IMG/VR virus record: IMGVR_UViG_3300037067_008462
DNA length: 64,000 bases
Direction: 5' to 3' (one strand)
Source: an uncultured virus (IMG/VR IMGVR_UViG_3300037067_008462)
Lineage: Duplodnaviria; Heunggongvirae; Uroviricota; Caudoviricetes
The translations under genes and the position numbers were made by a program. Within the stretch, counting starts at the first letter, position 1. The number at the start of each line of letters is the position of its first letter. This document shows positions 881-64,000 of the stretch, piece after piece. Below the pieces are notes generated by a model. That model searched no databases. It was given only the letters and a program-made list of their open reading frames with translations, and was not told the origin of the DNA.

Positions 881-1324
881 ATGTTTGATCATAATGTTAA
901 GTTAGAAAAGCTGAGAGATTTGGGTTTTCCTAAAGATTATTCACATCTTACTGAATATTCAATGATAGAATGGCTGAGTTCCAAAGGAACTATTTCAATT
1001 AGGAAATTTCCTTGTGTAAATTGTCCTGTTGTTCACGGATATGATATTGTTGCTCCCGATGGTTCTAAATGGCAGTTTAGGGGACAAGAACCACTTGATA
1101 CATTCGAGGAATTTTTGTATGCTATTTGTGAGCATATATTAAGACTCGAAAATACACCAGTTCCCGGAGATATAGTCAAGGTTGAGGGCTTTATTGAGCG
1201 AGGAATTGTAATCAACGTTTTAGGGGATGGCACTACCATTGTAGAACCACTAAAAGAAATTAAAGTTTCCAAAGAAGATAGAGGTCTTATTACTATCCTC
1301 GAAAAGTTGCGGACTACAAAGTAA
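881..1324 (+). CDS. Hypothetical protein
   Basis: 147-aa ORF with AGGAGA RBS and an upstream TTGACT-17-TATAAT promoter. Confidence 0.8.
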   Translation: MFDHNVKLEKLRDLGFPKDYSHLTEYSMIEWLSSKGTISIRKFPCVNCPVVHGYDIVAPDGSKWQFRGQEPLDTFEEFLYAICEHILRLENTPVPGDIVKVEGFIERGIVINVLGDGTTIVEPLKEIKVSKEDRGLITILEKLRTTK

Positions 1325-1326
1325 AC

Positions 1327-1355
1327 TTGACAAACTCTATCTCTTATGGTATTAT
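1327..1355 (+). promoter_or_regulatory. Sigma70-type promoter (representative of dozens in the window)
   Basis: TTGACA-17bp-TATTAT with TG extension; the spacer contains CTCTATCT. Confidence 0.75.
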
Positions 1356-1361
1356 AATTTC

Positions 1362-1461
1362 GCGGCCATAGACCATTCGATTTATAAGGCTCTGTTCTCA
1401 CGTGATGTGAGTTGGTATGAAGTAGCCATAGGGACGTGATAACTACCTATTCGTCCCGCCA
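1362..1461 (+). ncRNA. Candidate small structured RNA/leader ending in GCCA
   Basis: Starts at the predicted TSS; CTCAC/GTGAG and GGGACG/CGTCCC stems; possible GTAG/CTAC pseudoknot. Confidence 0.35.
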
Positions 1462-1468
1462 AATCAAT

Positions 1469-2918: not shown

Positions 2919-3368
2919 ATGCCTAAAATGAAATGTGTTTGTGAAATCTGTGGGAAAGAAATATATAGAAAACATTCTCAAATCTATAATCACATATATT
3001 GTAGTCGTAAATGTTATGGTATGTCTTGTAGAAAAATTCATTTGTGTCCTATTTGTAATAAAGAAATTTTAGGACACAAAAATTCTAAACATTGCAGTAA
3101 GACTTGTGCAAATAAGGCTAGAACCGGAATTAAATATCACACAGGAGCCTTGAATAGCAAGTATACAAAATATAAAAAACTTAAAAAACAATTAATATTA
3201 GAAAGAGGGGGTGTTTGTCAAATATGTATGCTCGATAAAGATTATCTTTTAGATGTTCATCATATTGTACCTAAAAAAAGGGGTGGAGGAGACAATTTGG
3301 ACAATTTAATGCTACTTTGTCCAAATTGTCATAGAGAGAAACATTATAGAATGAGCCATGAGGTCTAA
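2919..3368 (+). CDS. HNH endonuclease with N-terminal Zn-binding repeats
   Basis: CxxC...YCSRKC repeats; CQIC..DVHHIVPKKRGG..NLMLLCPNCHREKH. Confidence 0.9.
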   Translation: MPKMKCVCEICGKEIYRKHSQIYNHIYCSRKCYGMSCRKIHLCPICNKEILGHKNSKHCSKTCANKARTGIKYHTGALNSKYTKYKKLKKQLILERGGVCQICMLDKDYLLDVHHIVPKKRGGGDNLDNLMLLCPNCHREKHYRMSHEV

Positions 3369-4536: not shown

Positions 4537-5629
4537 ATGAGTGAATTTGATAACAATCTTGCTGGAAATCCAGACAAACCAGTTACAGTTTGGAATAATA
4601 GATGGAGCAGTATTTCTATTAAAATTGGTCACAGTAATGGTAATTGTCAAAGCGATTATGTTATAGAAATTAGTGATTTTAATGGTCAGAAAGTTTTGCT
4701 TTTAACCGAGAAAGAACTACATCAACTTACCAAGATGCTTGTAAATTGGTCGTTATCGTAATATCCAGATAGAGCCTTGCATTTTTCAACCGAATGTGTT
4801 ATGATTAAACCATCTTGAAGGAGACTAAAGTGATTAACTCTCTCAAACTTGCGACCAAAGCTACCAATCTGATTGTTGAATATGCTGAAAAGAATCAAGC
4901 CCTTGGTTCTGCTTACGTTAAGATGGGGGATAAGTTTTATGAGATAGAGGATGTTCGTGTAGTGGAAGGTATAGGTGGGGATAAACCCGCTATCATTCTT
5001 GATGTCTCCTCGGATTCTCTATAAGGATAATATGATGCCTATTGTAGATTATATCCTGGCCGTCTTATTGGGAACAATGTTGTTCATGATATATGAACTC
5101 TTTCTTCTCATTGTTGCAGCCTTCTATCTTCAACAGATTAAATCATTACTCGATATCAATACTGAAGTTTTCGTATCATGGGACAATAACATGAAGAAAA
5201 TTAAGTTTATCTGTGAATATGTAGAACAACCGGGAACTTCTGATCAAAAGATAGAGGAGTGTACTGAACTGATTAAATTGATTGCGGATATAAACAAAGT
5301 ATATAATAAAACTGCTAGAGAAAACCATGAGAAGGTAGATGTTATCAATAAGAAAATCGGTTATATCCTCGATGCAGTGGCGTTGAAAGTTTGGAGAGAG
5401 GAAAGTTGATATGTTTCAGTTTAAGAGGTCTGATTTTCCTACGAGAGAACATTACATTCAGGCGATTCTAGATGCAGAAGTAGATAAATCTAGTCCTCTT
5501 GCCTTGGCATGTATGGAGTTTTTGGAATCACAAACGAGATATCGAAACGGACATGGTGATATAATTTCAGGATTACAATGTCTCGATGAATTAGAGAAAC
5601 AAATTGATGATAAGTTTAAGATAGAGTGA
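4537..5629 (+). CDS. Four small hypothetical ORFs (4537-4761, 4830-5024, ~5031-5409, 5411-5629)
   Basis: Closely packed + strand ORFs with RBSs; the third has a TM segment. Confidence 0.65.
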
Positions 5630-5676: not shown

Positions 5677-5952
5677 GGGCGCGTGGGTGGCTGGTAGCTG
5701 CAACCACTCTTAGATATGAGTGCTTCAAGAGAAATCTTAAAAGTAGAACCTCTTAAATTCAGGGAAACCTTTAAAATGGTAATCCTGAGCCAAGCCTGTG
5801 TGGAAGGTGCAGAGACTTAACAGGAGGAGCCTAAGTCATAAGATAAGGCTAAGAGAAAGTCCAGCCTACAAACCGAAAGGGTAGTGAAAACTATAGTAGG
5901 AAGATAAGGTGGCCCCGTAATCACGCGGAAAGTTCGATTCTTTACGCGCCTA
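5677..5952 (+). tRNA. Intron-split non-canonical tRNA, anticodon TAT (exons 5677-5711 and 5904-5952)
   Basis: GGGCGCGT/ACGCGCCT acceptor stem, GTGGCT/AGCTGC D-stem, CCACT/GGTGG anticodon stem with spliced loop CT-T^AT-AA, 16-nt variable arm, AAAG-TTCGATT-CTTT T arm. Confidence 0.75.
5712..5903 (+). mobile_element. Group I self-splicing intron (IC3-like, tRNA anticodon-loop type), 192 nt, no ORF
   Basis: P AAATTCAGGGAAA, Q AATCCTGAGCC, R GTGCAGAGACT, S AAGAGAAAGTCC; P1 CTT^A/TGAG with U.G pair; terminal G at 5903. Confidence 0.9.
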
Positions 5953-6005: not shown

Positions 6006-6530
6006 ATGGTATGTAAAAATTGCGGTAAGGCATTTTCTCTCAGGGTTCGTATAGACGGAGAAATTCATAGTTTACAAAATAGAAAATATTGTTTAGAATG
6101 TTCTCCCTACAAAAGTCACAATACTCGACAGTTAGACAGATATAAAAAATATATCAAAGAAGGTAGATTGGTCGAGAAAGAGTGTTCTCAATGTGGCGAA
6201 ATTAAACCAATTGAAGAATATTATAATAACGGTAATCGTCCTCATTCTTTTTGTAAAAAATGTTTAAATTTAAAAAGCGTAGAAAGGTTTAGGGAAAGAA
6301 AATTATGGGCTATTGACTATAAAGGGGGAGAATGTCAGATGTGCGGATATAATAAATACGCTGGCGCATTAGAATTTCATCATTTAGACCCTAACATCAA
6401 GGATTTTACGATAGATAGATATAATAAGCTTTCTAAGGATAGATTAAAAGTTGAATTAGATAAATGCATTTTGCTTTGTGCTAATTGTCATAGAGAATTG
6501 CATTATGAGTTAAAAAACCCCTCCTCTTGA
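6006..6530 (+). CDS. HNH endonuclease (free-standing, homing-type)
   Basis: KGGECQMCGY..ALEFHHLDP..KCILLCANCHRELH. Confidence 0.9.
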   Translation: MVCKNCGKAFSLRVRIDGEIHSLQNRKYCLECSPYKSHNTRQLDRYKKYIKEGRLVEKECSQCGEIKPIEEYYNNGNRPHSFCKKCLNLKSVERFRERKLWAIDYKGGECQMCGYNKYAGALEFHHLDPNIKDFTIDRYNKLSKDRLKVELDKCILLCANCHRELHYELKNPSS

Positions 6531-6598: not shown

Positions 6599-7294
6599 AT
6601 GAAGAATTTATTTAAATCAATTTTTATTATCATTGGTATTCTATTTCTAGTATCAGCTAGTGCGAATACAAAGGTTTATATTACTAAATCAGGTGATAAA
6701 TACCATAAATCTAGTTGTTCTTATTTAAGGAATTCTAAGATAGAGATTTCTCTTAAGGACGCTATTGATCAAGGATATACAGCTTGTAGTCGATGCAAGC
6801 CACCTAAGACATACAAGAAGTCCAGCGGAGAAGATGAGGGTACAGATCAATCTGAAGATATTGTTGGATACGGAGAACTTCATCTTAGAGCAACAAAAGA
6901 AGAATTAATATCTCTTGGATATTCTCAACCAGACAAAGGATTTTTACTCGTAGGAGAATGGTGGCTTAAATCTCCAACCGAATATTTGGAGATTGAAAAC
7001 GAATCTATTGAAGTAATGGTTGGTGCTTCTACCATCGGAGATAAGGTTGTTTTAATTAATATTGTTGAAAAGAACAAAGATAATTCCAAAAAGGATTATA
7101 AAATATTATCTGATTATATTCATTCTAAGTATTCTAAGTCTATTATCGAAACAGAAAAATCCAATATAATTATACTAAAGGATAAAGACGGAGATCACCT
7201 TATAGTTACCAATATTACAGGTCAATTAATTATACAATATTCAACTTCTACTGCATATGAAATTTTATACGGAGATAAGGAGAATAAGATATAA
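6599..7294 (+). CDS. Secreted/membrane protein with small Cys/His metal-binding domain
   Basis: Signal-peptide-like N-terminus; VYITKSGDKYHKSSCSYL...GYTACSRCKP. Confidence 0.7.
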   Translation: MKNLFKSIFIIIGILFLVSASANTKVYITKSGDKYHKSSCSYLRNSKIEISLKDAIDQGYTACSRCKPPKTYKKSSGEDEGTDQSEDIVGYGELHLRATKEELISLGYSQPDKGFLLVGEWWLKSPTEYLEIENESIEVMVGASTIGDKVVLINIVEKNKDNSKKDYKILSDYIHSKYSKSIIETEKSNIIILKDKDGDHLIVTNITGQLIIQYSTSTAYEILYGDKENKI

Positions 7295-7713
7295 TGCCGT
7301 GTCAGAAACAAATTACAAAAACGAAAAAGGTAGAATCCAGAAAAGAATATTTAATTTTCAAATTGGGTGGTCGTTGTTCTGTAGTGGGCTGTCCAGTAGT
7401 TTATGATGGTCATAATGCATGTATATTCGACTTTCATCATCAGATTCCCTTAGCCAATTGCGAAAAGAAGTTCGGAATTACCAATTGGGCTTTAGATAAT
7501 TACTCTATGGAAGAAATAGAGGCAGAGGTAGCTAAATGTCTCTTAGTATGTAGAAATTGTCATAACGAGATTCATTATCGCAAAGGTCGAGGTAATTGGT
7601 TTAATTTTAATAAAAAAGAAACAGAAATTGAGTCCAGAGGTAAGAAGCTTGCTTTTTTAGGTAAAAATTTAGGTAAAAAATTTAGAATTGTAGATTTTGA
7701 TGAAAGGAAGTAG
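7294..7713 (+). CDS. HNH endonuclease
   Basis: GGRC..GC..FDFHH..KCLLVCRNCHNEIH. Confidence 0.85.
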   Translation: MPCQKQITKTKKVESRKEYLIFKLGGRCSVVGCPVVYDGHNACIFDFHHQIPLANCEKKFGITNWALDNYSMEEIEAEVAKCLLVCRNCHNEIHYRKGRGNWFNFNKKETEIESRGKKLAFLGKNLGKKFRIVDFDERK

Positions 7714-9149: not shown

Positions 9150-9434
9150 ATGGAAGAAATTAAATTATATAGAATAGGCGATATTGCTTATATGGAAGGA
9201 TGTCAGCATGTCGTCAAACATAGTCCTACTGGTATAGAATGGGGTTATGGTGGTTCTGGTCCCGCTGATCTTGCTCTATCCATCCTGACGTGGGCTGTAG
9301 GGGAAGGTAAGGCTCTCCAATGGTATCAGGACTTCAAGTGGGACGTGATCCTTCCCATGCCTAGAGAGGGCGGAATCATTACGAAAGACGAAGTGATTGA
9401 ATGGTGTTCACACAAGACTCTATCTATGAATTAA
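9150..9434 (+). CDS. Conserved hypothetical protein (DUF6166-like)
   Basis: HSPTGIEWGYGGSGPADLALSIL motif; family name recalled from memory. Confidence 0.75.
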   Translation: MEEIKLYRIGDIAYMEGCQHVVKHSPTGIEWGYGGSGPADLALSILTWAVGEGKALQWYQDFKWDVILPMPREGGIITKDEVIEWCSHKTLSMN

Positions 9435-9455
9435 GATAGAGTGAAGGAAATAAAG

Positions 9456-11611: not shown

Positions 11612-12429
11612 ATGCATTGCGCGAATTGTGGTGTTAAAATTAATGAATATGATTCATATCTACCAGATATGAGTGCGTCTGAATACGGAAAGCGATATAA
11701 GAATGGAATTCTTAAGCGTTATTGTGAGAATTGTTATTATGAAGACGATCCCGTAATTACTGTAATAGATATAAAGAATAATACAAAGGTTGGGATTGGA
11801 TCACTTCGGGCTTATGGAGAAGATGACATTGATTTAAGTTATTTTAAGTTCGGCTATACTCATACCGATGCGTGGAGAGGTTATTTCTATGCCGATCTAA
11901 AAAATGATCCCAATAATCCTCTCTGCAAGTATTCTGACGGTTGGACTACTGGAATGCCCGACGAGACCACTCATTCCAAGGCTCTATTTAATGATACGAT
12001 TGAGTGGCTTAGAAAACAAGACCTACCTTTTACTATGTATTTAATCATTTCACAGACCTCTAATGTATTTTCTTTAGGAATTGATATTTTCTTAAAGAAA
12101 GATGAGATAGAGTCGTTTGAGGAATGGATGAAAGAACACGGCAAAGACCCTGAAATCTTGAAGGAATTTTAGAAGACCAAGGCTCTATCTAAATGATCGA
12201 AATTCAAATCAATCTAATACCATTTGGTATAGGAGAACCTAAGTCTCTAGGTAAGATTATAATAGGTAATGATGGAACGGGAACTGAAAACATAGGCAAC
12301 TATAATATCAAATTCTTCGATAGAGCCAATAGACAGTTTAAAACAACAAGACTAGAGAAATGGCCTCGCATGAAGAAGTCTATTTGGCAGATGATCAAGA
12401 AGATATTCGAAGAAGAAAAGATAGAGTGA
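11612..12429 (+). CDS. Two hypothetical proteins (11612-12172, 12193-12429)
   Basis: RBS-preceded ORFs; the first has CxxC pairs. Confidence 0.7.
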
Positions 12430-19047: not shown

Positions 19048-19095
19048 GCTCTATCTCTTGACTTCTTTAAAAGAACGTGGTATGATATACCTATC

Positions 19096-45202: not shown

Positions 45203-45227
45203 GGCCCCGAAAGGGGCCGTTTTTTTT
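45203..45227 (+). terminator. Intrinsic terminator
   Basis: GGCCCC-GAAA-GGGGCC followed by T8. Confidence 0.9.
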
Positions 45228-45242
45228 GGGTAAAATCCATTT

Positions 45243-46612: not shown

Positions 46613-46665
46613 AGAACTTGCAATATTGGAATCGATAGCAAAGAAGAAAGTCGAGAAAGAAAAGA

Positions 46666-47139: not shown

Positions 47140-47229
47140 AAAAAAACAATAAAGAATTTGGAATTAGAGTTCCAGACTTCAATAAAGATATCGAAGAATA
47201 TATCAACGACATACTAGAGAGGAATTAAA

Positions 47230-48043: not shown

Positions 48044-48055
48044 AAGGCTCTATCT

Positions 48056-49642: not shown

Positions 49643-49658
49643 GGGGTACAATTAAGAT

Positions 49659-51265: not shown

Positions 51266-51272
51266 TATTTGT

Positions 51273-52037: not shown

Positions 52038-55000
52038 TGCCTACAGGACTAGTTAAAAATGCAGCAGACGAAACCAAATGGAAAAGAGCCAAACGTGCTG
52101 CACAAAAATCTACGGGCAAAAAATCATGGGCTTTAGTTAATTATATTTATCAAAAGATGAAGAAGGGTGTTAGCGATAACATTGAAAACGATAATGCGGT
52201 TGCCTGGACCGCAACAGGACGTTTAGCTAAAATCTTTAAACCAGAAAAACTAAACGATTATGTTGAAAGTCAAACCAGAGGAGATATTGTTGGAGTCAGT
52301 GATAACCCTGTAAGATTGCATCCACTGATTCGTGATAAAATTATTCAATATCTTTCTCAGGCCAAAAATGTTCAAGGAAACATAATTCGTAAAAAGCCGG
52401 AAATCTTCAAGGTTCCTCACGGCACTCTATCTCAAAACACCTTATCTAAAAGTGTTCCAATATCTTATATAATTAAACAGATTAATCAAGAAGGTGGAAT
52501 CGATAGATTAATTAAGTTAGGAAAACTAAAACATTACAATCAAGGACGTTATAGAGATGTTTATGAATGGACAAATAGAAGAGGAGAGGCCGATCCAGAT
52601 AAAGTAATTAAGATTGAACGTCGCCCTCAAGGTGCTAATGAAAACGAATTCTCAACATGGAAAAAATTACAAGAAATAGAACGAACCGAACTTGTTCCAA
52701 AAATATATCAACGTTTTCAAACCCCAAAAGGTGAAGATGTTATTATAGCTAAAAAGGCTGAACCGTTTACATTAAAAACAATGCCGTCAGAATCAAACGC
52801 TCTATTTCGCCGTCTCTTACCGAGGGATAATAAAAGATCTAATTTCGGAATAATGAAGCACGGTAGAGTTGTTAAGTTAGATACATCTCACGATTGGGCT
52901 GATACCATTAACAAAGGTACCCCGATTAAGCACATCATAAGGATGATTGAAAAAAGGGGAATCGGAGGGTTAATAGAAAACGGAACATTAGAAGAATTGG
53001 GTTCTGGATATTCTAGAAATGCATACGGATACAAAGGAAATCCAGATGTTGTTATTAAACATGAACCTAATCCTTGGCCCGTAAGTAGCAATAGAAGAGA
53101 AGGAATGGTTTATGATGCCCTAAAAAGAATAGGAAAAACACATTTGGTACCAAAGATTTATGCCAACATTCAGCTTCCCGAAAGACAAGGTGATGTTTTA
53201 ATTACCAAAAGAGCAAAACCATTTAAATACAGCAGATCAAAAGAATTAACTTCTTTGATGGATGATCCGAATCATTTATCTACTTACAAAGAAATCAAAA
53301 AATTGATGCCATTTGATAATAAAGATGCTAATTTCGGAACTATGGGAGAGGGAAACAAAAAAAGACTTGTAAAATTAGATACGGGCGACGATCCGGCTCA
53401 TCTAATCAAACAACCCTCTATTTTTAAAGCAGTTCCTATTGCTCATATTATAAGGATGATAAATAAGGAAGGAATTAGTAATCTTATTAATAATGGAACT
53501 TTAGAAGAAATTGGATCTGGGGGTTCTCGATATGTTTTTAAACATAAAGGCAATCCACATGTTGTAATCAAACATGAACCAGAAGGAAATGCTTTTAGTA
53601 GCAATGCTTACGAAACTGCTATTTTTAAAAAATTACAACAACTGGGATCTGAATCAAGTTTTGTTCCAAAGGTTTATACAAATCAATCTATTCCAAAAGA
53701 TAAAGGTGGAGGAACAGTTCTAATCGCAAAAAGAGCTATTCCTTATTATGATCAATATCATTCCTGGACATATAGCGATCCGGAAGAACAAGCAGAAGAT
53801 GATCGTTTTTCTTATGAAGTAGACAAAATAAAAAATCTTCTTCCCGCTGATACAAGTCCTCAAAATTTTGGAATTATGGGTCAAGATAAACATAGACGTG
53901 TGGTTAAATTAGATACAGGAAATGATCGTCTTGACGAGCTTAACACAAAAGTAAAATTTAAAGAACTTAAGAAAAGAAAAGAAGAATTTCGCTCTATCTT
54001 TAAAGCTGTTCCATACAAACATATATTAAGAATGTTGGCAAAATACGGTATAGAAGGAATGCGAGACAAAGGGTGGAAAATCGATTCGTTAGTGGGAGGG
54101 AGTTATAGGAAGGTTTTTGATTTAAAGATTCCGGGAAAAGAAGCTCCAAACGTTGTTATTAAAATGCCTAGAAATCCAGAAGATCCTACAGATTGGGAAG
54201 CAAACGAAGAAGAAGCTAAAGCTTGGAAAATGTTGAAGCCAAAAGAAGAACAATATCTAATGGCTCCCGTTAGAGGACATGAGGCTCCCTTTTTATTAAT
54301 GGATAAAGTTATCCCTTTATCTAAATTAGTAAACGTGCAATCAAAAATATTAAGAAGAGACCCTAAATATTATAAAGATTACAAAAAGATTCTAGAACGT
54401 CAACCTGACGACTCTGCTTATAGAAATTTGGGAGTAAGAAAAACCAAAGGGGAAACCAAACAACTTGTTATGTTGGATGCAAATCTTTTTCCAACACAAT
54501 ATGAATGGTTTCAAAACAAACAAGACATCCTCAAGGCTCTATCTAATAAGACAGTCAAAGAATCAGGAGATAAAATAAATATAGATTGGAAGAAATATTC
54601 AATCAAACAGTTAAAAGAAGGAATGGAGATAGAGGCAGAGCATGGCTCAACCGATCCCCAAACCGATGTCACACATGATGATCCGGTTTTGACTGCTAAG
54701 ATTGCATTAGCCCATATAAAAGAGTCACCTGAATATTATAAAGAATTAAAAAAGATGGAGAAAACATTAGAAAAAGCTAAAGGTTTTGCTCCTACTGGTG
54801 ATCCTAAAGATTTATTTGCCGGTAACAAGGGGAGAATCTTAAGCCAAAATTATACAGGAGATGATCGTTGGAATCCTAATAGTATGTATGAGATAAATAA
54901 GCCTGGACTACCTGGGCGTTATACAGAAACAGAAGAACCAGACTCTATCTCTAAATCCATCAATGATATAAGTCGTACACAAAATCTATTCGAAGGAAAA

Positions 55001-57391
55001 TCTCCTTTAAACGAAACAGTAATCAAAAGAAAACAAGAGCATTATAGTCAAAAACAACCTAACATAGATTCTTCAGATTGGCCCATTTATCATCATCTAA
55101 AAAATGAATCAGATCTTTGGCAATTAGCACACAACGATTTTCATAATTTTGGTGGAATAAACGTTAGACCTAACGAAATAAAAGCAGGAATGAATGAAAT
55201 CCTTTATCTTACACATGCTCCCCATTTGGTAAACTCAAATTTCGAACCAAGACCTGTTTCAATAATTATGAATCCGAATACAATAAAAAAGAAATCCGTT
55301 TGGATTCCCAAAGATAGTTACGAATACATAGAAGATCCGTTAGATTTTTCTAATAAATCAAAATTCAATAAAGAATCATTAAGACAAGATATGTATGGTG
55401 GTCCATTAAGAAAAGAACATCTACAGAGAATAGCCCAACGTTATCCAGATAAATTGAATCTATGGGCCACAAATGATCCAGAAAACAATCCTATCGAATG
55501 GTCAGATATAGACGAAGGACACATAACAAAAGATTTGAACACTAATGATGTGCTTGGTGTTATTCATAGGGTTCATCGTGGCAATGCCAGTCAAGGTGGT
55601 GTTGCTCAAATGAGAACCTCCGCAAAGCTTCTTTCTCGGAGAGGAATTCCATATTACATTATTAATGGTAGTTTTCTATCTGATAGATTAAGAAAAGAAG
55701 ATGTTGAAGATTTAGAGAGTTTGGGAGCAACATTTGTTAACGAAAAAGACGCTCACCAAATCGCTCGACAATTAACGAAACAATCAATAGGAAAATTGCA
55801 AAAAGCCGTTCCCGATCCTCTTTCTTCTACTCCTGTTGAGGAAATAGATACATCTGCTGAACATTTAGATCCTGAATTCAGAGAGATGATTTTAGAATTA
55901 ATAGATAGAGCGAAGAGAGAATTAGGATTGGATGTTTATATTCGTGAAGGATTTAGAAGTCGTAATAGACAACAATGGTTGAATGATCTCGTTAATGCTG
56001 TTGGATATGGATATGCTCCAAGCATTTATCTTGAAAATGGTCAGGTTGATTTGAGAGACATTGAATTTCCTCATGGTGCTGGACTTGCAGCGGATTTAGG
56101 AATTCGTAATCTTCCTGATGAACGAGAAGCACACCATACTCTTCACGCTCTATTTTATTCATTATTTAAGGATAAAGTTAATCCAGAAACACTCAAAGAT
56201 GATGAGAATCACTATGAAGCTTCAAAAGAATTCATTCAACAGAAGGAAAGAGATTTGAGTAACTCAAATGAATATACAAAGTTTGCATCTCGTTTCGAGA
56301 AAGCAAAAGTAGGAAGAAAAGGAAGATCGTTAGAAGAAACAGACTGGCCGTATTATGCGTTAGAACCCTGGAAGATTAATAAATATCCCAATACACCAGA
56401 AACTAAAAGCAAGATATGGAGAACGAACGCAGATAGATTAATGAGACATTTGTTAGAAAACAAATTTTCTCCTGAACAAATTGAAAAGATGTTTGGTGAA
56501 AAGAACGTTCATCAATCCTATAGGGATGCTTGGAAACAAGGATGGGGCGTGGATCTGAAATTGAATCAGAATAAAACAGGAGATTGGGAATATTCTTTCT
56601 CTCATCCAGCCAAAGGATTGAAACAAACATTTGGAGATGAACCTGAAAAACCGTCTGAAGGATTAGAGGCTTATGATTTTGATCTATCCAATCCTCCCAC
56701 CAATCCCGAAGCTCTATCTCACGAAGAACCTAACGCTAAAAAATATACAGATTATATTAATGAAACAATACAGATGATTGATAAACCCAAATTCAAAGGT
56801 TTCATGGGAGATGTTGAGCAGGCAGCAAGAACCTATGCTAAACCTCTGACTGATTTAGCAGGAGTAATAGGAGGAACCGCTAGTTACTTAAAGGATAAGA
56901 TGGGAATAGAAAGTACTCCACAAAATCAATCCGTTCTTGAAGAACCACAAGAGGAAACACCAAAGATTTCAAACCGATTTGATCCTACCGGTAATCAAAT
57001 AGAAAACAAAATAAGTCGTCAAATCGAAGAAAGCGAAAAAAGAGTTAAAGGTTACGAAGCTGCTCCTGGACTGCAAGTTCGTAAAAAAATTAATAAAATA
57101 GTTCCTCCAACCAAGACAAGAGGCGTTACTGAAAACGTAATAAATAAAAGAGAAAAAGAATTCGAGAAACGTTCGCCCGAAATGCTTTCGCGGATACAAG
57201 AGACAGCGGGTTTGATGCATAAAAAGAACGAAGCGAAAAAAGAAATTGTTTCAGCTATGAATGAAGAAATTGATCCTTCAAAGATACAGAAGGACGTTGA
57301 AGATCTTGCTGCTGGAAAGAAAGATCAAATAGGAATAGGTAAGGCTGCGTCTATTCGTTTTCTTTATAAAGCTCTTTATCGGGAAGATTAG
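52037..57391 (+). CDS. 1784-aa multidomain protein: four protein-kinase-like domains, a DUF5661-like domain, an unknown (ART-like?) domain and an M15-like peptidase
   Basis: Four repeats of GxxRxx[YF]..VIK..N..E..DxxxxN[FL]G..LD; GMEIEAEH...IALAH..E...YY; EGFRS..Q..PHGAGLAAD..NHYE. Confidence 0.8.
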   Translation: MPTGLVKNAADETKWKRAKRAAQKSTGKKSWALVNYIYQKMKKGVSDNIENDNAVAWTATGRLAKIFKPEKLNDYVESQTRGDIVGVSDNPVRLHPLIRDKIIQYLSQAKNVQGNIIRKKPEIFKVPHGTLSQNTLSKSVPISYIIKQINQEGGIDRLIKLGKLKHYNQGRYRDVYEWTNRRGEADPDKVIKIERRPQGANENEFSTWKKLQEIERTELVPKIYQRFQTPKGEDVIIAKKAEPFTLKTMPSESNALFRRLLPRDNKRSNFGIMKHGRVVKLDTSHDWADTINKGTPIKHIIRMIEKRGIGGLIENGTLEELGSGYSRNAYGYKGNPDVVIKHEPNPWPVSSNRREGMVYDALKRIGKTHLVPKIYANIQLPERQGDVLITKRAKPFKYSRSKELTSLMDDPNHLSTYKEIKKLMPFDNKDANFGTMGEGNKKRLVKLDTGDDPAHLIKQPSIFKAVPIAHIIRMINKEGISNLINNGTLEEIGSGGSRYVFKHKGNPHVVIKHEPEGNAFSSNAYETAIFKKLQQLGSESSFVPKVYTNQSIPKDKGGGTVLIAKRAIPYYDQYHSWTYSDPEEQAEDDRFSYEVDKIKNLLPADTSPQNFGIMGQDKHRRVVKLDTGNDRLDELNTKVKFKELKKRKEEFRSIFKAVPYKHILRMLAKYGIEGMRDKGWKIDSLVGGSYRKVFDLKIPGKEAPNVVIKMPRNPEDPTDWEANEEEAKAWKMLKPKEEQYLMAPVRGHEAPFLLMDKVIPLSKLVNVQSKILRRDPKYYKDYKKILERQPDDSAYRNLGVRKTKGETKQLVMLDANLFPTQYEWFQNKQDILKALSNKTVKESGDKINIDWKKYSIKQLKEGMEIEAEHGSTDPQTDVTHDDPVLTAKIALAHIKESPEYYKELKKMEKTLEKAKGFAPTGDPKDLFAGNKGRILSQNYTGDDRWNPNSMYEINKPGLPGRYTETEEPDSISKSINDISRTQNLFEGKSPLNETVIKRKQEHYSQKQPNIDSSDWPIYHHLKNESDLWQLAHNDFHNFGGINVRPNEIKAGMNEILYLTHAPHLVNSNFEPRPVSIIMNPNTIKKKSVWIPKDSYEYIEDPLDFSNKSKFNKESLRQDMYGGPLRKEHLQRIAQRYPDKLNLWATNDPENNPIEWSDIDEGHITKDLNTNDVLGVIHRVHRGNASQGGVAQMRTSAKLLSRRGIPYYIINGSFLSDRLRKEDVEDLESLGATFVNEKDAHQIARQLTKQSIGKLQKAVPDPLSSTPVEEIDTSAEHLDPEFREMILELIDRAKRELGLDVYIREGFRSRNRQQWLNDLVNAVGYGYAPSIYLENGQVDLRDIEFPHGAGLAADLGIRNLPDEREAHHTLHALFYSLFKDKVNPETLKDDENHYEASKEFIQQKERDLSNSNEYTKFASRFEKAKVGRKGRSLEETDWPYYALEPWKINKYPNTPETKSKIWRTNADRLMRHLLENKFSPEQIEKMFGEKNVHQSYRDAWKQGWGVDLKLNQNKTGDWEYSFSHPAKGLKQTFGDEPEKPSEGLEAYDFDLSNPPTNPEALSHEEPNAKKYTDYINETIQMIDKPKFKGFMGDVEQAARTYAKPLTDLAGVIGGTASYLKDKMGIESTPQNQSVLEEPQEETPKISNRFDPTGNQIENKISRQIEESEKRVKGYEAAPGLQVRKKINKIVPPTKTRGVTENVINKREKEFEKRSPEMLSRIQETAGLMHKKNEAKKEIVSAMNEEIDPSKIQKDVEDLAAGKKDQIGIGKAASIRFLYKALYRED

Positions 57392-58782
57392 AATACGGTT
57401 ATTCGATTATCGCTTATATGACCAACCGATAACATCAATGAACTAATAACATCATCTTTTGTTCCTCTATAAATATAGTTGTGTGATGTGGTTTCTTCAA
57501 TCCGATAGTTCGCTAACTCTTCTCTGATGCAACTTAAATCCCATAGAGCAATTTCTTCGTTAGCCAGTTTCATTTGAAGTTTTTCAATTAATTCAAATTT
57601 GTTAGAGTTTGTGAATTTGTGTCCATATATACAAAGACCGGTCACTCCGTATAGCTCCCTCATTCTTCGCTCTATCTCTTTTGGAATCCCGCTCCCTTCT
57701 CCTGTAGCATCTATATATATTTTAAGAATCCTTTGTTTATTCCAAAGACTATAAATAAACTTACAGATTCTTTCTATATTTAGATCATCACCCAGATGGT
57801 TCCATCGATCAAAACCAACCATTTTAAGATCATTAGTGAAGGCCGTACAAACATTAAAGTCGTACAGTCTTGCATAGTCTATTCCAATAGTTAGGTTCTC
57901 TGCCGGAGAAGGTATATAAAAATTCTTAGGGAAAAAAATGTCATTTGTAAAAGCGAAAACTTCACCCGAAACTGCATCAAACTCGCCCTCCCATTCTCGT
58001 TTAAAAAACGCCATACGGTAAGGTGTACCAATTTCTTCGGCTTCTTTCTTTTTTTCGTAATATTCGTTATGATCACTGAACGGATTATCTAATATATGAA
58101 GTTTAATAGCTTTTAATCTTGGTCTTTCATTAGTGGGATCTTCTTGGAACTTTGTTTCTGCATATTGATAACTTTCTTTAAACCAATTATCTCCACGTGG
58201 GCTTGAGATAGCTAATAGTCGTCCCATATGTTTTTTACGGTTAAGCGCAGGGCGTACTTGATAAAATGCACTGTCAGAAAGCATTGCGGCTTCATCAATT
58301 ACTACTAAATCGGCACTCATACCTACTAATGCATCCGGGTCGTTACCCGAAAGAACAACAAGTTCAGAACCTCTGCTGCCTACATTAGTTTTAATCGACA
58401 TATTCTGAACATTAAAGCTTCTACTTACTAGTTTCGATTTCAATAGTTCACTTTGAGAAAAACAATGCCAGATATTTTCGAATACATATTTACAGTGTTT
58501 ATATTGTTCTGCAACAACGAAAACTCTTCTGTTTGGCATTAATAATTCTTCTATCGCTCGAATTGCAGCTACATATGTTTTACCACTACCTCTAGAGGCA
58601 CATACATAAATTTCTTTCGCTGGACACATCAGGATTTCCATTTGTTTTGGAAATGGAAAAACATCTTCTCCTAAACTTTCCCATAAGGCTAGTCTGTTAT
58701 ATCCCAACCCTAATCCAACATCTCTATCTGTTAACGGTTTTTTATTTAAATATTGTAGGTAATAATCCTTATTCATCGTCAT
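57388..58782 (-). CDS. terL: Terminase large subunit
   Basis: Walker A SRGSGKT, Walker B VVIDEAA, ISSP motif III, RNase H-like GIDYAR..D, IDATG.G, DDVI. Confidence 0.93.
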   Translation of the reverse strand: MTMNKDYYLQYLNKKPLTDRDVGLGLGYNRLALWESLGEDVFPFPKQMEILMCPAKEIYVCASRGSGKTYVAAIRAIEELLMPNRRVFVVAEQYKHCKYVFENIWHCFSQSELLKSKLVSRSFNVQNMSIKTNVGSRGSELVVLSGNDPDALVGMSADLVVIDEAAMLSDSAFYQVRPALNRKKHMGRLLAISSPRGDNWFKESYQYAETKFQEDPTNERPRLKAIKLHILDNPFSDHNEYYEKKKEAEEIGTPYRMAFFKREWEGEFDAVSGEVFAFTNDIFFPKNFYIPSPAENLTIGIDYARLYDFNVCTAFTNDLKMVGFDRWNHLGDDLNIERICKFIYSLWNKQRILKIYIDATGEGSGIPKEIERRMRELYGVTGLCIYGHKFTNSNKFELIEKLQMKLANEEIALWDLSCIREELANYRIEETTSHNYIYRGTKDDVISSLMLSVGHISDNRITVF

Positions 58783-59482
58783 GAATTATATCTCCCAAAT
58801 TATCTATAAACTTATCTTCAGCTTCTTGATCTTCTTGAGTCTCTTCAATTATTTCTTCGTCAATAACCCCTTCCATATCATTTTCATTTAAATTTCTATA
58901 TTTCTTAATTAGATCTTCGTTAAAACTATCCTCATACTGAAGTTTTTGTCCCTTATCTCTTTTAATGAGGATTGTTTTGTCGTTTTTGTATCCATAAAGT
59001 TCAGACTGTCTTTCTTGAGCTTTTAATATGATTTGAAATCCTTTAATGAGTATGTTATGAAATTTCTCGATATCAAGATCGGCTATCTGAGTTTCTTCCC
59101 AATTTAACTGAGCGGGTTGAAGACCACTATTTAATTTTCTTACGGTTTCATTCCGAGTTCTTGATAACTTCTCCATCTCGGTCCAAAGTGTTTGTTCAAC
59201 TGCTTCGGATTTTTTTACCAAGATATGTCTTTGATCTACGTAGGCTTTAATATCGGCAGCAGACTTATCAATCCAAGCATTTGCCGCACGAATATAACCT
59301 AGAACCTTATTTCTACTCCAAAAGATCCCCGTCTCAGCTAATGCGTTTTTAATGTCAAGAACATCAGTAAATCCTTTACTCATAAGCTGAATCACTAAAT
59401 GAACATTGTTCATTATTTCTTCATTAGAAGGATTGCGATTTATCTTGTTTTTTACTGGTTCAATATTTGTTTCATTGTCCAT
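58769..59482 (-). CDS. Putative terminase small subunit
   Basis: Directly upstream of and overlapping terL; HTH-like N-terminus, helical body. Confidence 0.55.
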   Translation of the reverse strand: MDNETNIEPVKNKINRNPSNEEIMNNVHLVIQLMSKGFTDVLDIKNALAETGIFWSRNKVLGYIRAANAWIDKSAADIKAYVDQRHILVKKSEAVEQTLWTEMEKLSRTRNETVRKLNSGLQPAQLNWEETQIADLDIEKFHNILIKGFQIILKAQERQSELYGYKNDKTILIKRDKGQKLQYEDSFNEDLIKKYRNLNENDMEGVIDEEIIEETQEDQEAEDKFIDNLGDIIHDDE

Positions 59483-59543
59483 GACAATAGTTTAACCAAA
59501 AATTTGGATATATTAATTAGGACTACAATTATTTGGAGTAAAC

Positions 59544-61679
59544 TTGGCTAGATTCAATTTGTGGCAGATCTTTGATCTGGACTTTTGGAACAGAAAAAGA
59601 GAGCGAGAAGCAACCCGTATGGTTCGTCCTCCCGCTCGTTTGGTTAGTGTTGAATCCGAATATAGACCTTGGGATCGTGGAAAAGGACAGGAGATCCGTA
59701 GTGAGGTCTATTGGCAAATTCCATTCGTTCAGCAAAAGGCTCTATATCAAAGAAACGCTTGGGTTAAAAAATGTATAGACCACATGAGCGCCAATGCCGC
59801 TGGTTTAAAGTGGCAGATTTCAGTCGAAGAAGATCACCTTGAAAGTTTAGAGACAGATCCTCGATTGAAGATTGCATTAGAAATGGCGAAGCAATTTTTC
59901 AAACGTCCTAACACATTAAAAACAACTTTTTCAGAAATTATAAAAATGACAATTCGTGATTTAAAAATCATGGATGCTGCTGTTTGGGAAAAGATTAGAG
60001 ATACGAAAGGAAGGTTGGTAGGTATCAAGCCCTTCGATGCCGCCACGGTACGTATCGATATAGATGAACACGGAAAAATTCTACATTATTTTCAAGAACT
60101 AAAAGGAAGCAATCTTTACGGTTTATATGCTGGATCTCGACATCCATATTTACGAGAAGATGAACGCAATGAAGACGGTTTAATTCAATTTAAACCAGAT
60201 GATATTATTTATATCATGTTAAATCCGAGATCGGAAAGTCCTTACGGATCAAGTCCGATCTCTGCTCTAATCGAAGCCATTTATGCTGATTTGGCTACCG
60301 ATACAAACTTAGGAACGTTCCTTTTAACAGGAGGAATTAATCTAGGATTCTTGACTATCGGACAAGAACTAAATCCGGAAACCGTAGAAAGAATACGTTA
60401 TAAGTTCCGTGAATCGTTAGCTCCCGGAGAAAGATATAACTTCCCAATTATTTCTGCCACAGAAGATATCAAATGGAATAACATGCAGATGTCTAACCAA
60501 GAAGCTCAGATGGCAGAATTACAAGCAGAGCTTCGTAACAAAATTTTGGCAGTTCTATCTGTACCACCGAACGAACTTGGTCTGGTAGGAAACACTCGCG
60601 GTCAAGTTTATAGTCAGCAGGATGTATTCTGGGGCAACGCAATCATCCCCACAATGTTAACCATTGCGGAAAAAATCACCAATGAAATTCTTAGAGAATT
60701 CGATGAACGCCTCGTCTTTGAGTTTCTTCCTCCAAAAGAATATCAATATGAATCATTAATTGCAAGAATTGTTACATTAGAAAAAGAAGGTCTGATCGAC
60801 AGAAGAACTAAATATAAGTGGCTCGGACTTCCTATTCCGGAAGCTCTAACTTACGTTGAAGAAAAAAAGGAAATGGAGTTAGAACAAATGCGAATGGGTA
60901 TCGAAGCGCAACGTTTAGAATTGGAAGTTCAAAAACGTAACTTCGATGTCATACTGCAACAGCCCAGAGTTCAATACGATCAATCTGTAGCTCAAACCGT
61001 TCTACTTCAAGAACAAGCTGGACAATCTCAAGCCTCTCAAGCCTTACAAGAAAAACAAATGGCTCTTGAGGATAAACAACTTGAACTTCAGAAACAACAG
61101 TTACAACAGCAGGGTGACCTAGCAAACAAAGATTTCAAGATTCAACAAATTCAATTGGCAATGCAGTTAAGACAATTATCTCAAGAATATGAAATGATGA
61201 AGAACCAAGGAGCCGCACCACCACCGGTTCAAAACAATGAAATTATTAATGGTTTGATTTCTGGAAAATTGGACATATCTCAATTGTCAGATATGATTCA
61301 AAACGGACAGGTTGATTCCGAACAACTTCAACAAATTTCTGCTGCCAGCAAAGTAGCCAAAACTCTATCTCTTGCTAAATCAATAAAAGCTATAAACGGT
61401 ACAGTTCCACAATCAGCTACAGACGGAATAGAGTTTCAAAATAGTTTCGACCAACAAGAAAAGATAGAGTCGAAAGATCTCATGAATACTTCCACTCCCT
61501 CCGAAGCTCTATCCTCCGGAATTCCCGATACCATAAAATTAGGAAAAACAGATGGTGGAAAAGGATTCGTTTCTAATAAAATAAGAAGTATTTTAGGAAT
61601 GTTAAACAAACATGACGTAGGAATCGAGAACCCTCAACAAACAGAACAAAGATCCGTTGAGGGAATTCGACCCGTATAG
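59544..61679 (+). CDS. Portal protein with Q-rich C-terminal extension
   Basis: WVKKCID...PN....F, EKIRD..G, YGSSPI, VPPNELG motifs; TTG start with GGAG RBS. Confidence 0.9.
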   Translation: MARFNLWQIFDLDFWNRKREREATRMVRPPARLVSVESEYRPWDRGKGQEIRSEVYWQIPFVQQKALYQRNAWVKKCIDHMSANAAGLKWQISVEEDHLESLETDPRLKIALEMAKQFFKRPNTLKTTFSEIIKMTIRDLKIMDAAVWEKIRDTKGRLVGIKPFDAATVRIDIDEHGKILHYFQELKGSNLYGLYAGSRHPYLREDERNEDGLIQFKPDDIIYIMLNPRSESPYGSSPISALIEAIYADLATDTNLGTFLLTGGINLGFLTIGQELNPETVERIRYKFRESLAPGERYNFPIISATEDIKWNNMQMSNQEAQMAELQAELRNKILAVLSVPPNELGLVGNTRGQVYSQQDVFWGNAIIPTMLTIAEKITNEILREFDERLVFEFLPPKEYQYESLIARIVTLEKEGLIDRRTKYKWLGLPIPEALTYVEEKKEMELEQMRMGIEAQRLELEVQKRNFDVILQQPRVQYDQSVAQTVLLQEQAGQSQASQALQEKQMALEDKQLELQKQQLQQQGDLANKDFKIQQIQLAMQLRQLSQEYEMMKNQGAAPPPVQNNEIINGLISGKLDISQLSDMIQNGQVDSEQLQQISAASKVAKTLSLAKSIKAINGTVPQSATDGIEFQNSFDQQEKIESKDLMNTSTPSEALSSGIPDTIKLGKTDGGKGFVSNKIRSILGMLNKHDVGIENPQQTEQRSVEGIRPV

Positions 61680-61688
61680 GAGAAAAAC

Positions 61689-61862
61689 ATGGCCGATGAT
61701 TTTGACGCAAGATGGTGGAGACCAGATCTCCCTCCGGGTTGTACTAAGTACACAGTATTTAGATACCCCCTTGAGTTTGCAATGTCGATAGAAGAAGGAA
61801 CTGCTCTACCTTTAATGGGAGACCCTGAAAACGTTTCAAAGATAGATCCAGAGAATTCTTGA
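61689..61862 (+). CDS. Small hypothetical protein (not in the ORF track)
   Basis: AGGAG RBS; MADDFDARWWRPDLPP... Confidence 0.6.
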   Translation: MADDFDARWWRPDLPPGCTKYTVFRYPLEFAMSIEEGTALPLMGDPENVSKIDPENS

Positions 61863-61895
61863 TTTTAAATTTCATAAATTGGTTAGAATAATGAT

Positions 61896-62453
61896 ATGCT
61901 AAAAGACCGAGAAATATTGGATCATTTGCAAAATGCGAAGCATCCCAAATTCCATCGTTTTCTACATTTAATTAAAGAGACACGAGAACAAATGGGTGCG
62001 GATTCTTTTGATTATGAACAAGTTGTTCTAAAACTTGCTAGATTTTTAGCTGACATTTCAGATTGGAACGAAGCCAGTTGGCCCCCGGAAGAACTATTTC
62101 ATTATTTCGAAGGACATCACAAACCAGATATCGATAAGGCTACAGATTTTCTTGTAAAATATTTAAAAATGAATGATAAAGAAGATCGTAATAGTACTCA
62201 AATTATTAATGATACTTTAAATTATACAAATCCAAGTAAACCCGGTATGGCTGATGGATTCAGTGAAACGTCTAATAATGAGTGGAACGAAGGTCCAATG
62301 AACATTCATTATGATTTTGCGAGTTATGCAAATCGTCCGGATTCAACCATCTTTTTAGAAAATCGTCCTTGGGGTAATGATCCTGAGATGATCGAGCGAC
62401 TTCGCAAAAATGAATATTTTAATATGATTTTAAATCGTAAGGAACAAAAATGA
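61896..62453 (+). CDS. Hypothetical head-region protein
   Basis: 185-aa ORF after the portal. Confidence 0.7.
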   Translation: MLKDREILDHLQNAKHPKFHRFLHLIKETREQMGADSFDYEQVVLKLARFLADISDWNEASWPPEELFHYFEGHHKPDIDKATDFLVKYLKMNDKEDRNSTQIINDTLNYTNPSKPGMADGFSETSNNEWNEGPMNIHYDFASYANRPDSTIFLENRPWGNDPEMIERLRKNEYFNMILNRKEQK

Positions 62454-64000
62454 CCACTTTAATCAATAACCTTGTAAAATCTTTGGTTGCTGATTTTGTC
62501 GAAGACGCCACAGCATATGGTTATGAATTTGAACCAGAAGATACGGCGGTTGTTGCAAGTCTAGTCATTGATACTTTAGATAGAGTTCGGAAATCTGCTA
62601 ATGTTCCTGACGAGCAACTCGCAAGTTTTGTGGAACAAAATGATCGACTAATCAGGGCTGAAGCACTCAACTCTTTAGATGGCTGGTATGAAGGCCAGAT
62701 GATTGAGAAGTCAATGAGTGAACTTAGTTACCATCCTGAACATGTTCGCGCTCACAAGATAGAGGACGAAGATGGGAAAGTGTGGGATGAAGGTTTCGTA
62801 AAGGGACGCTTCACTGATCTACCTGAAGAACTTCGTAGTCACTTGTTAGACTATCACGGTGAGAGCAAAGTTTATCACGTTCACCTGGATAGTGGAAACA
62901 GTCCGATGATCTTCGGTAGAGACGCAGAGGTTCACTCGATGAATCCAGCGGAACTAAAGAAATCTCAAATGCATGAGATCATACATAGATTAGATGAACG
63001 TGCTTTTCGTGAGATTAATGGTCTCGAAAGCACATCCGCTGAAGATTGGGAATTAGAGTTTTATCAAGAATTTAATAAAGCTGAAATTTATCCAAACATG
63101 ATTTGGGCTGACGGTGTTGTTATCGCTCCTGAGTTAGCCGGTCACCTTAATGACTTTCATGGTTCTTATCCGAATGGTGAATTAAAGTATGTACCGCATC
63201 CACTAGAAGTTACGATGATCGGACCAAGCGAAGTCTTTTCTCAACTATCAGAAATGCAAAAGGCTCTATCTGATCGTGTCCCCGAGATTAAAGAAACAAC
63301 TGTAGTAGATGAATTAAGAACTCTATTTACAGTACCAGATGAAACAATTCAAAGACCTAAAGTAGAAAATATATACAAAGCGTTGGGCCTGCGCCCTTTT
63401 CACAAAGCGGGAGTAGAAACAGAGGATGAAGCAAATCTAGGGGGAGATTATAGCGAACCGGAAGCTCCTCCCGCTGAACCAACTGAAAAAATGCCTTACG
63501 TTAACTCCCAGGAATCCGGTTTGCCGGAAGAGGAACTTGCTCTTCCGCAAGCCAAACCGCAAGGTTCAACAAACATGACGACTGTTGCGGATAATTACCA
63601 AAACGATCCCAACATTAGAAACTATGTTCTTGAACACTTCATGAATGAATTCATTAATCAAGTTAAACAAGAAAGACCTGAAGTTAGGGGAGCTTTCGAT
63701 ATAACGGTTCCCGAAAAGAAACAGATAGTTAGCAAGCTCATGCAGTTAAACCAGATAATTACCGGAAACAAAGGTAACAGTACCGCCGTACAAGCCGGTA
63801 TGAATGCTTCTGTAGAAGAATATATCAGAGAATCTTTGATCAATTACGCCTCAATGAATTTCGGTGAAGAAGCCGGTGATTCACTTCGTTTGTTAAGTCA
63901 AAACGGAGACTTCCTTTCCTTGATGGCTAACGTTATCGGAAATGGAACTTTACCTGTAGGTCAAGAAGGAAAAGAAGATCAGCCTTGGCCTGGAAAGAAA
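62450..64000 (+). CDS. Large acidic head-region protein, 3'-truncated by the window (not in the ORF track)
   Basis: MTTLINNLVKSLVAD... appears open to the window edge; many hydrophobic-x-K[AS] motifs. Confidence 0.75.
   Translation, partial: MTTLINNLVKSLVADFVEDATAYGYEFEPEDTAVVASLVIDTLDRVRKSANVPDEQLASFVEQNDRLIRAEALNSLDGWYEGQMIEKSMSELSYHPEHVRAHKIEDEDGKVWDEGFVKGRFTDLPEELRSHLLDYHGESKVYHVHLDSGNSPMIFGRDAEVHSMNPAELKKSQMHEIIHRLDERAFREINGLESTSAEDWELEFYQEFNKAEIYPNMIWADGVVIAPELAGHLNDFHGSYPNGELKYVPHPLEVTMIGPSEVFSQLSEMQKALSDRVPEIKETTVVDELRTLFTVPDETIQRPKVENIYKALGLRPFHKAGVETEDEANLGGDYSEPEAPPAEPTEKMPYVNSQESGLPEEELALPQAKPQGSTNMTTVADNYQNDPNIRNYVLEHFMNEFINQVKQERPEVRGAFDITVPEKKQIVSKLMQLNQIITGNKGNSTAVQAGMNASVEEYIRESLINYASMNFGEEAGDSLRLLSQNGDFLSLMANVIGNGTLPVGQEGKEDQPWPGKK

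Follow-up and report, generated by a model that had tools for sequence, protein, structure and literature searches.

Why would a single short, non-palindromic word recur throughout a phage genome, within and between genes and on both strands? This question is raised by a stretch of DNA from an uncultured virus of the class Caudoviricetes (IMG/VR record IMGVR_UViG_3300037067_008462), in which the octamer AGATAGAG, appearing as CTCTATCT when it lies on the minus strand, is extremely frequent. By "the window" we mean the whole stretch that was analyzed (letters 1-64,000), which makes up 64 kb of a 134,284-bp contig. Our data indicate that AGATAGAG is a strict, orientation-independent word written by selection through the whole phage genome. 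By analogy with phages that are rich in Chi sites, we tentatively postulate that it is a Chi-like word read by a helicase-nuclease that processes DNA ends.

The initial annotation of this DNA, based on a hand count, gave about 90 exact copies in both orientations, inside and between genes. Indeed, we counted 93 copies between positions 1276 and 63271 (45 on the plus strand and 48 on the minus strand), i.e., one per 688 bp or 1453 per Mb. Among them, 71 lie within open reading frames (ORFs), 19 are intergenic, and 3 fall on ORF edges, with intergenic DNA being 1.7 times denser in copies than ORFs. The copies, each 8 bp long, start at the following positions.

Plus strand, AGATAGAG: 1276, 1530, 2224, 4767, 4942, 5249, 5619, 6566, 6738, 8190, 8349, 8933, 9434, 10490, 12105, 12419, 12770, 12940, 13248, 16817, 16855, 17121, 19121, 23213, 23575, 26173, 27483, 28122, 28575, 29449, 31343, 32339, 34150, 36334, 36364, 41747, 42187, 45760, 48913, 50510, 54627, 55903, 61462, 62578, 62757

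Minus strand, seen as CTCTATCT: 1335, 7959, 9418, 9633, 10936, 12183, 13910, 14748, 14976, 16425, 17506, 18307, 19049, 20062, 21384, 21696, 21972, 23726, 24057, 26435, 27059, 28362, 29091, 29710, 30444, 30612, 31043, 33513, 37203, 38774, 40186, 40635, 42293, 44882, 46075, 47104, 47931, 48048, 50967, 52425, 53992, 54537, 54943, 56712, 57670, 58722, 61363, 63264

The number of copies expected by chance is small under every null model that does not already contain the word. Dinucleotide shuffles of the window gave a mean of 3.74 copies (standard deviation 1.95, largest value 9), and none of 100 shuffles reached 93, which corresponds to a ~25-fold excess. The initial annotation had assumed a G+C content of ~33% and an expectation of 2-3 copies; the G+C content is in fact 35.7%, yet the expectation stays low, at 3.4-6.1 copies under Markov models of orders 1-3. 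Models of orders 5 and 6 approach the observed count (36.9 and 78.8 copies, respectively), both being built from sub-words of AGATAGAG. Coding constraints do not account for the excess either. The 71 copies in ORFs compare with 7.83 ± 2.36 (maximum 14) in 200 synonymous-codon shuffles performed within each gene and with 3.10 ± 1.96 (maximum 11) in 200 codon permutations. Moreover, 71 of the 151 peptide contexts that are able to encode AGATAGAG by codon choice alone carry it, meaning that the word is present at nearly half of the sites where the phage proteins permit it. The excess thus survives the Markov models of orders 1-3 and both codon-aware null models, the kinds of control that had been proposed for it.

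AGATAGAG is the most frequent 8-mer of the window, and the next two, AAGATAGA (55 copies) and ACTCTATC (42 copies), are its own overlapping shifts, sharing 7 nt with it. The most frequent 8-mer unrelated to AGATAGAG has 31 copies, and once AGATAGAG was masked, no comparable word was left in the window. To the best of our knowledge, selection on this short word is among the strongest observed in a virus. Among the papers searched, none gives AGATAGAG or CTCTATCT as a motif, and two hits proved unrelated.

The word is also strict. Of its 24 one-mismatch variants, none exceeds expectation by more than about 2.6- to 4-fold and most occur as expected, compared with 19- to 25-fold for the word itself. 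Enzyme sites typically show such all-or-none specificity, whereas transcription-factor sites do not. Within ORFs, 34 copies are in sense orientation, using the two frames that avoid an internal TAG (20 and 14 copies), and 37 are antisense, distributed over three frames (6, 20, and 11 copies). Since every stop-free frame is used in both senses, AGATAGAG is a feature of the DNA rather than of a peptide or an mRNA. The proposal of the initial annotation that the word is a genome-wide signal read by a protein is upheld to this extent: the use of frames, the codon-aware null models, and the 71 of 151 permissive contexts place it at the DNA level, and it is not a by-product of coding or composition.

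Among the possible signals, stoperator-like repressor sites had been suggested. The stoperators of Cluster A mycobacteriophages are likewise asymmetric words with many copies spread over a phage genome, some of them at promoters, but they are 13 bp long, mostly intergenic, and oriented with transcription, whereas AGATAGAG is 8 bp long, has 76% of its copies in ORFs, and occurs in either orientation. We do not favor an array of stoperators or repressor operators, given that 71 of the 93 copies lie in ORFs, in nearly equal numbers sense and antisense, and that their orientation does not follow transcription.

Analysis of spacing and orientation, likewise proposed earlier, showed gaps with a mean of 674 bp, a coefficient of variation of 0.87, and a range of 16-2641 bp, i.e., a Poisson-like arrangement, along with the 45:48 division between strands. 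The density of copies, and not their exact placement, therefore appears to matter. The flanks are not random. On the 3' side, position +1 is not A, +2 is C or G, +5 is G or T (74 of 93 copies, p = 7e-10), and +6 is not C, while on the 5' side a purine is preferred at -1. This preference is degenerate, weaker than the word itself, and mainly 3', and it is seen again when the analysis is confined to the 65 copies with flanks entirely within ORFs; 14 copies read AGATAGAGNNTTG.

The orientation of the copies shows a weak polarity along the window, with 19 plus and 6 minus among the first 25 copies and 26 plus and 42 minus among the remaining 68 (permutation p = 0.047, Mann-Whitney p = 0.018). Such a shift might be expected if AGATAGAG were a replication signal, i.e., a site for primase or for primosome loading from which lagging-strand synthesis starts, with the trend in orientation marking the direction of the fork. 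The spacing of ~0.7 kb overall, or ~1.4 kb per strand, is within the range of Okazaki fragments. We nevertheless consider a priming signal very unlikely, as primase sites are short (3-5 nt) in comparison with a strict octamer and the bias in orientation, at 68% and 62%, is weak. The replication genes lie outside the window.

We next turn to the phage itself and its relatives, which were found by means of the large terminase gene. Two genes are needed here.

57388..58782, minus strand: large terminase gene, through which relatives were detected and the window was recognized as phage DNA
59544..61679, plus strand: portal gene, whose product shows ~24% identity to Bacillus Herelleviridae portals, 58% to the portal of relative L003, and 50% to that of relative L002

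Judging from its sequence, the window is about half of a novel large phage, because the terminase's own cluster sits on the 134,284-bp contig, a megablast search of GenBank phages with window positions 45-58 kb found no near DNA relative, and the portal is only ~24% identical to those of Bacillus Herelleviridae. Terminase searches yielded matches of at most 32% identity among viral contigs and no match among genome contigs. However, two metagenomic contigs are true relatives that share the gene order of window positions 45-64 kb, namely L003 (terminase 54% and portal 58% identical) and L002 (51% and 50%), compared over 18.2 kb and 21.4 kb, respectively.

The word is not abundant in either relative, with 1 copy in the 18.2 kb of L003 and 4 copies in the 21.4 kb of L002. 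At codons orthologous to copies in the window, it is present at 0 of 16 places in L003 and at 1 of 10 in L002. Two copies in the terminase gene illustrate this.

57670..57677, minus strand: encodes E-I-E-R; five relatives have E-V, so that a V-to-I change creates the word
58722..58729, minus strand: lies over the invariant T-D-R-D by codon choice; the sole window copy for which the orthologous site of a relative, L002, also carries the word

L003 has an abundant word of its own, TAGAGCC, which occurs 15 times against 1.2 expected and in both orientations (TAGAGC, 28 against 6.0). It shares the core TAGAG with AGATAGAG, and its copies are at positions that are not homologous to those of the window. 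No abundant word was found in the 21.4 kb of L002. Because the relatives lack the word at orthologous codons and the word of L003 stands at other places, each lineage has written its own word independently and recently. A comparison with related phages, as the initial annotation had recommended, thus revealed two syntenic relatives without an abundance of AGATAGAG, one of which has a different word. Beyond these relatives, no phage truly dense in AGATAGAG was found among at least 114 stretches of viral contigs having two copies within 30 nt; the densest proved to be tandem AGATAG arrays or purine-skewed contigs in which the reversed control word was equally common.

What could read such a word? 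A strict word that is found densely, in either orientation, and anywhere in the genome points to an enzyme moving along the DNA that has to encounter it soon, whatever its starting point; among phages, Chi is the best-documented example. We tentatively suggest a helicase-nuclease that enters DNA at a break or a free end and tracks inward, possibly the RecBCD/AddAB-type enzyme of the host or, less likely, a phage-encoded analogue. Upon meeting the word in the right orientation, this enzyme would stop degrading the DNA and begin to promote recombination. With copies in either orientation at intervals of ~0.7 kb, ends that arise anywhere in a replicating genome that is terminally redundant or permuted could then be rescued, and the rescued ends might be channelled into recombination-dependent replication. 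The observation itself is solid: the data establish the enrichment, the strictness of the word, its indifference to frame and strand, the preference in its 3' flank, and its independent origin in this lineage. Beyond this, we infer that a helicase-nuclease does the reading, that the host uses the word as its Chi, and that the phage benefits from it.

This reading rests on analogy with phages known to be Chi-rich. Phage P1 is reported to carry 50 Chi copies in 94.8 kb and the lambdoid phage LLS 23 in ~43 kb, with Chi being the commonest octamer in each of them and the runner-up octamers overlapping it by 7 nt (PMC12315714). Pseudomonas phage MD8 has 32 copies of the Pseudomonas Chi (Zheng et al. 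2025, PMC12315714). As far as these phages are described there, they resemble the window in that a strict octamer is the top 8-mer, exceeds expectation tens of times, occurs inside genes, and is followed by overlapping shifts. In addition, related phages have either many copies or none, as seen here for the window versus L002 and L003. The same source describes lambdoid phages as Chi-rich when they lack recombination modules and Chi-free when they have them (PMC12315714). The mixed orientation of AGATAGAG is no bar to a Chi-like role, because our own count for P1 gave 31 forward and 19 reverse Chi sites (control words, 0 and 1), so that P1, like the window, has both orientations. Finally, the asymmetric 3' flank preference may be likened to that of E. 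coli, in which Chi activity is reported to depend on nucleotides 4-7 of the 3' flank (PMC5041463). The suggestion of a Chi-like self mark in the initial annotation is therefore the one that best fits known cases (P1, LLS, and MD8).

Several points weigh against a Chi-like word. By definition the word would be the host's own Chi, and AGATAGAG has not been described as one. The Chi sequences that are known are rich in G, in contrast to the A/T-rich AGATAGAG. The density in the window, one copy per 0.69 kb, is ~2.7-fold higher than in P1 and LLS (one per about 1.9 kb), and its 45:48 orientation differs from the 20:3 of LLS and the 32:0 of MD8 (PMC12315714). Within 18 nt upstream of early-promoter -35 hexamers, the copies show an ~11-fold excess, which Chi does not predict and which distinguishes the window from Chi-rich phages. 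Furthermore, this phage is large and distantly Herelleviridae-like, whereas the P1-type and lambdoid phages are temperate. As to a recombination module or a RecBCD inhibitor of the phage's own, no such recombinase or inhibitor family was recognized among the 123 ORFs called in the window, most of which match no family and which cover 64 of the 134 kb; a RuvC-like resolvase and a small DprA/SLOG-like ORF are among them.

The search for a host likewise gave no support. We examined 810 distinct bacterial genomes, comprising 10 named centres (5 + 5) and even draws of 400 from a Bacillota-type phylum (Clostridium, Bacillus) and 400 from a Pseudomonadota-type phylum (gammaproteobacterium), with the reversed word as control; this sample represents ~0.4% of the species in the database and covers two phyla. 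None of the 810 genomes was clearly enriched for AGATAGAG over the control. The largest word-to-control ratios were 3.5 (G802, 42 versus 12 copies), 2.9 (G584, 131 versus 45), and 2.8 (G429, 230 versus 83), and the highest density was ~104 per Mb (G553, in which the control was nearly as common, with 228 copies), compared with 1453 per Mb in the window. A search of a protein atlas with the patatin-like protein of the window gave no hint of a host.

The host survey also bears on whether the word might spread by molecular drive, i.e., by biased uptake or gene conversion and not by any benefit, as DNA-uptake sequences do in competent bacteria. The DNA-uptake sequences (DUS) of Neisseria, the uptake signal sequences (USS) of Pasteurellaceae, and the cyanobacterial HIP1 are features of bacterial chromosomes; the first two are tied to competence, and HIP1 is palindromic. 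Like AGATAGAG, they are strict short words occurring about once per kb, in both orientations and in genes, where they override codon preference, and uptake sequences indeed share this signature of a strict word that appears in either orientation within genes despite codon preference. However, AGATAGAG resides in a virulent-looking phage without a known uptake route to drive its spread, and it is not abundant in any of the 810 bacterial genomes. We regard molecular drive as the least probable of the explanations considered.

Should AGATAGAG prove to be the Chi of the host, a phage sequence alone would disclose which word acts as recombination hotspot in an uncultured bacterium, and phages could be linked to hosts in metagenomes through genomes with the same skewed word. 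Moreover, the loading of Chi in place of recombinases would extend from temperate coliphages to large environmental phages.

The promoter-proximal copies point in another direction. The window contains ~31 near-identical early promoters on the plus strand between 2461 and 42725 (e.g., at 16255, 18547, 19923, and 27620), with the consensus TTGACT-TTTTCAAAAGAAC-GTG-C-TATAAT, a variant -35 hexamer TTGCAT, and an extended -10 element. They precede almost every small early gene cluster, an arrangement reminiscent of SPO1-type host-takeover regions. Our counts rest on 35 sites that match the early-promoter pattern. At 10 of these, a copy starts 9-26 nt upstream of the -35 hexamer, whereas chance would give about 0.9-1.6 for an 18-nt zone of this kind. 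Five of the 10 end exactly 2 nt before the hexamer (4767, 8349, 10490, and 28575 on the plus strand and 40635 on the minus strand). The following lines give the type example and the other arrangements.

4767..4805, plus strand: type example of the composite AGATAGAG-SS-TTG, with the copy at 4767, then CC, then TTGCAT-N17-TATGAT
19049..19086: minus-oriented copy 19049, lying 1 nt upstream of where the -35 hexamer of TTGACT-N17-TATGAT begins
12419 (plus), 30444 (minus), 31043 (minus), 23726 (minus): further promoter-upstream copies, whose starts precede the -35 hexamer by 15-26 nt
1327..1355, plus strand: promoter TTGACA-N17-TATTAT with copy 1335, in minus orientation, within its spacer

The earlier statement that many copies sit at -35 boxes thus holds for a subset, i.e., for the 10 of 35 early-promoter-like sites and for copy 1335 in a promoter spacer.

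These placements suggest that AGATAGAG could be the binding site of a phage-encoded, sequence-specific protein that binds duplex DNA, either one that coats the genome in the manner of a nucleoid protein or one that regulates the ~31 early promoters by silencing or adjusting them. Protein and sites would co-evolve, so that sister lineages come to carry different words; the TAGAG core shared with the word of L003 is what orthologous readers of drifted specificity would be expected to leave. The five copies in one register, the copy in a promoter spacer, the higher intergenic density, and the lack of an enriched genome among the 810 bacteria are also consistent with such a protein. Yet the 71 copies inside ORFs are randomly spread, neither orientation nor spacing relative to the promoters is fixed, and the absence of enriched one-mismatch variants is unusual for binding sites. 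In the four plus-oriented promoter cases, which read AGATAGAG-SS-TTG, the TTG of the -35 hexamer doubles as the preferred 3' flank, and the preference of the word for NNTTG can explain them; the same flank is found at ten AGATAGAGNNTTG copies away from promoters, where there is no -10 box. The minus-oriented cases have no fixed register. In addition, no DNA-binding family was recognized in the 64-kb window, and we know of no phage with binding sites every 0.7 kb inside its genes. We therefore hold a phage-encoded binding protein to be possible but doubtful. A promoter element of the T4 late-promoter type was rejected, as the copies occur in both orientations although nearly all genes are on the plus strand, and the ten AGATAGAGNNTTG copies away from promoters are without a -10 box.

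Start codons display a comparable pattern. Five copies occupy the gap between a weak AAGG/AAAGA Shine-Dalgarno sequence and the start codon, in the form CTCTATCT-(AA)-ATG, whereas ~0.4 would be expected at random.

12183..12195, copy in minus orientation: CTCTATCT-AA-ATG arrangement
21972, 26435, 27059, and 48048, copies in minus orientation: the same arrangement, with an AG spacer at 27059 and no spacer at 48048

The placements at promoters and start codons can reflect regulation, or they can reflect the few unconstrained positions available in very tight intergenic regions.

Some copies in opposite orientation lie close together, which is relevant to another candidate reader.

9418..9441: closest opposite-orientation pair, CTCTATCT at 9418 and AGATAGAG at 9434, with 16 bp between starts
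1276/1335 and 54537/54627: further close opposite pairs

A strict, non-palindromic octamer resembles the site of an enzyme, and AGATAGAG might be the target of a phage enzyme that modifies or nicks DNA, perhaps an HNH protein, and its marks or nicks would then aid in packaging, recombination, or evasion of defence. HNH-endonuclease matches were found in seven ORFs of the window, which also encodes a protein similar to deoxynucleoside monophosphate (dNMP) kinases.

2085-2459, 2919-3368, 6006-6530, 7294-7713, 21167-21532 (Lar-like zinc ribbon), 31254-32306, and 51273-52037: HNH/endonuclease VII-type ORFs
44284-44943: dNMP-kinase-like protein (family match)

The HNH/endonuclease VII-type ORFs are unusually many for 64 kb. 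Six of them together hold 2 copies of the octamer in ~3.6 kb against ~5 expected, a depletion that is not significant.

Nick-associated motifs are reported to be ~13-fold enriched in the phage tf / Rembedalsseter group (PMC11780129), which lends some support to such an enzyme. The nick-associated motifs of that group (WACTRTGAC) and of T5-type nicked genomes are, like AGATAGAG, short non-palindromic words enriched more than 10-fold inside and outside genes. As the source describes them, the known nick motifs are confined to one strand (13 of 13), amount to ~13 in each genome, and show conservation among 61 related phages (PMC11780129), whereas AGATAGAG is on both strands (45:48), has 93 copies in 64 kb, and is lacking as an abundant word in the syntenic relatives. 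Nicks at opposite copies would lie 16-59 bp apart and would therefore produce double-strand breaks. A one-strand nicking motif, which the initial annotation had raised, is not supported by these data. With regard to modification, no methyltransferase or base-modification enzyme family was recognized in the 64-kb window, and there is no evident reason why a modification target should be enriched 25-fold. Taken together, we consider a modified or nicked site unlikely.

Returning to a helicase-nuclease or coating protein, the reader of the word might be owned by the phage rather than by the host. In that case, AGATAGAG would be a "self" mark read by a phage-encoded enzyme or coating protein whose specificity drifts between sister lineages, an idea that we put forward with considerable doubt. 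For example, a nuclease-helicase that destroys host DNA would be switched off by the phage's own octamer. The lineage words would then be AGATAGAG here, TAGAGCC in L003, and none in L002, with each lineage rewriting its genes with its own word. If true, this would be categorically new, namely a private, evolvable, Chi-like code for self and non-self in viruses. A phage-encoded reader would amount to a new kind of viral self-recognition, and the two sister words with their common TAGAG would constitute a natural experiment on the evolution of specificity.

The remaining content of the window is that of a dense phage genome, with many short ORFs, nearly all on the plus strand, and a non-coding share of 13.5%. 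It also encodes a trypsin-like protease, three tRNAs, and a small DprA/SLOG-like ORF, together with the following features.

5700-5884, plus strand: group I intron (Rfam RF00028, 67 bits, full model length), followed by the HNH homing-endonuclease-like ORF at 6006-6530
19961-20266: stand-alone cREC_REC ("cyclic-phosphate processing receiver") domain protein
45243-46223: patatin-like phospholipase, conserved in L003 at 50% identity
46666-47139: RuvC-like resolvase (family match)
52037-57391: 1784-amino-acid ORF, with DUF5661 as its sole recognized family

The cREC_REC protein and the patatin-like phospholipase are possible defence or counter-defence genes. Conservation of the 1784-amino-acid protein in L002 and L003 is limited to short stretches near its centre (43-54% identity over ~170 amino acids), and a search of GenBank phages returned one weak match.

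The phage was found in groundwater and landfill metagenomes of three studies, represented by public runs. Contigs of four of these runs (X1 to X4) were placed on window positions 44001-64000, and their fitting pieces are identical to the window, leaving no divergence by which the conservation of copies could be scored. In contigs of runs X1 and X2, position 47128, close to where the RuvC-like gene ends (3'), is followed by an additional T, which is either a length variant or a homopolymer assembly error. In all four runs, the summed contig depth rises 5- to 8-fold over 51338-52004, with many loose ends at 51514-51629; this is an A-rich stretch within the HNH ORF at 51273-52037 that these metagenomes also contain in other organisms or in repeats.

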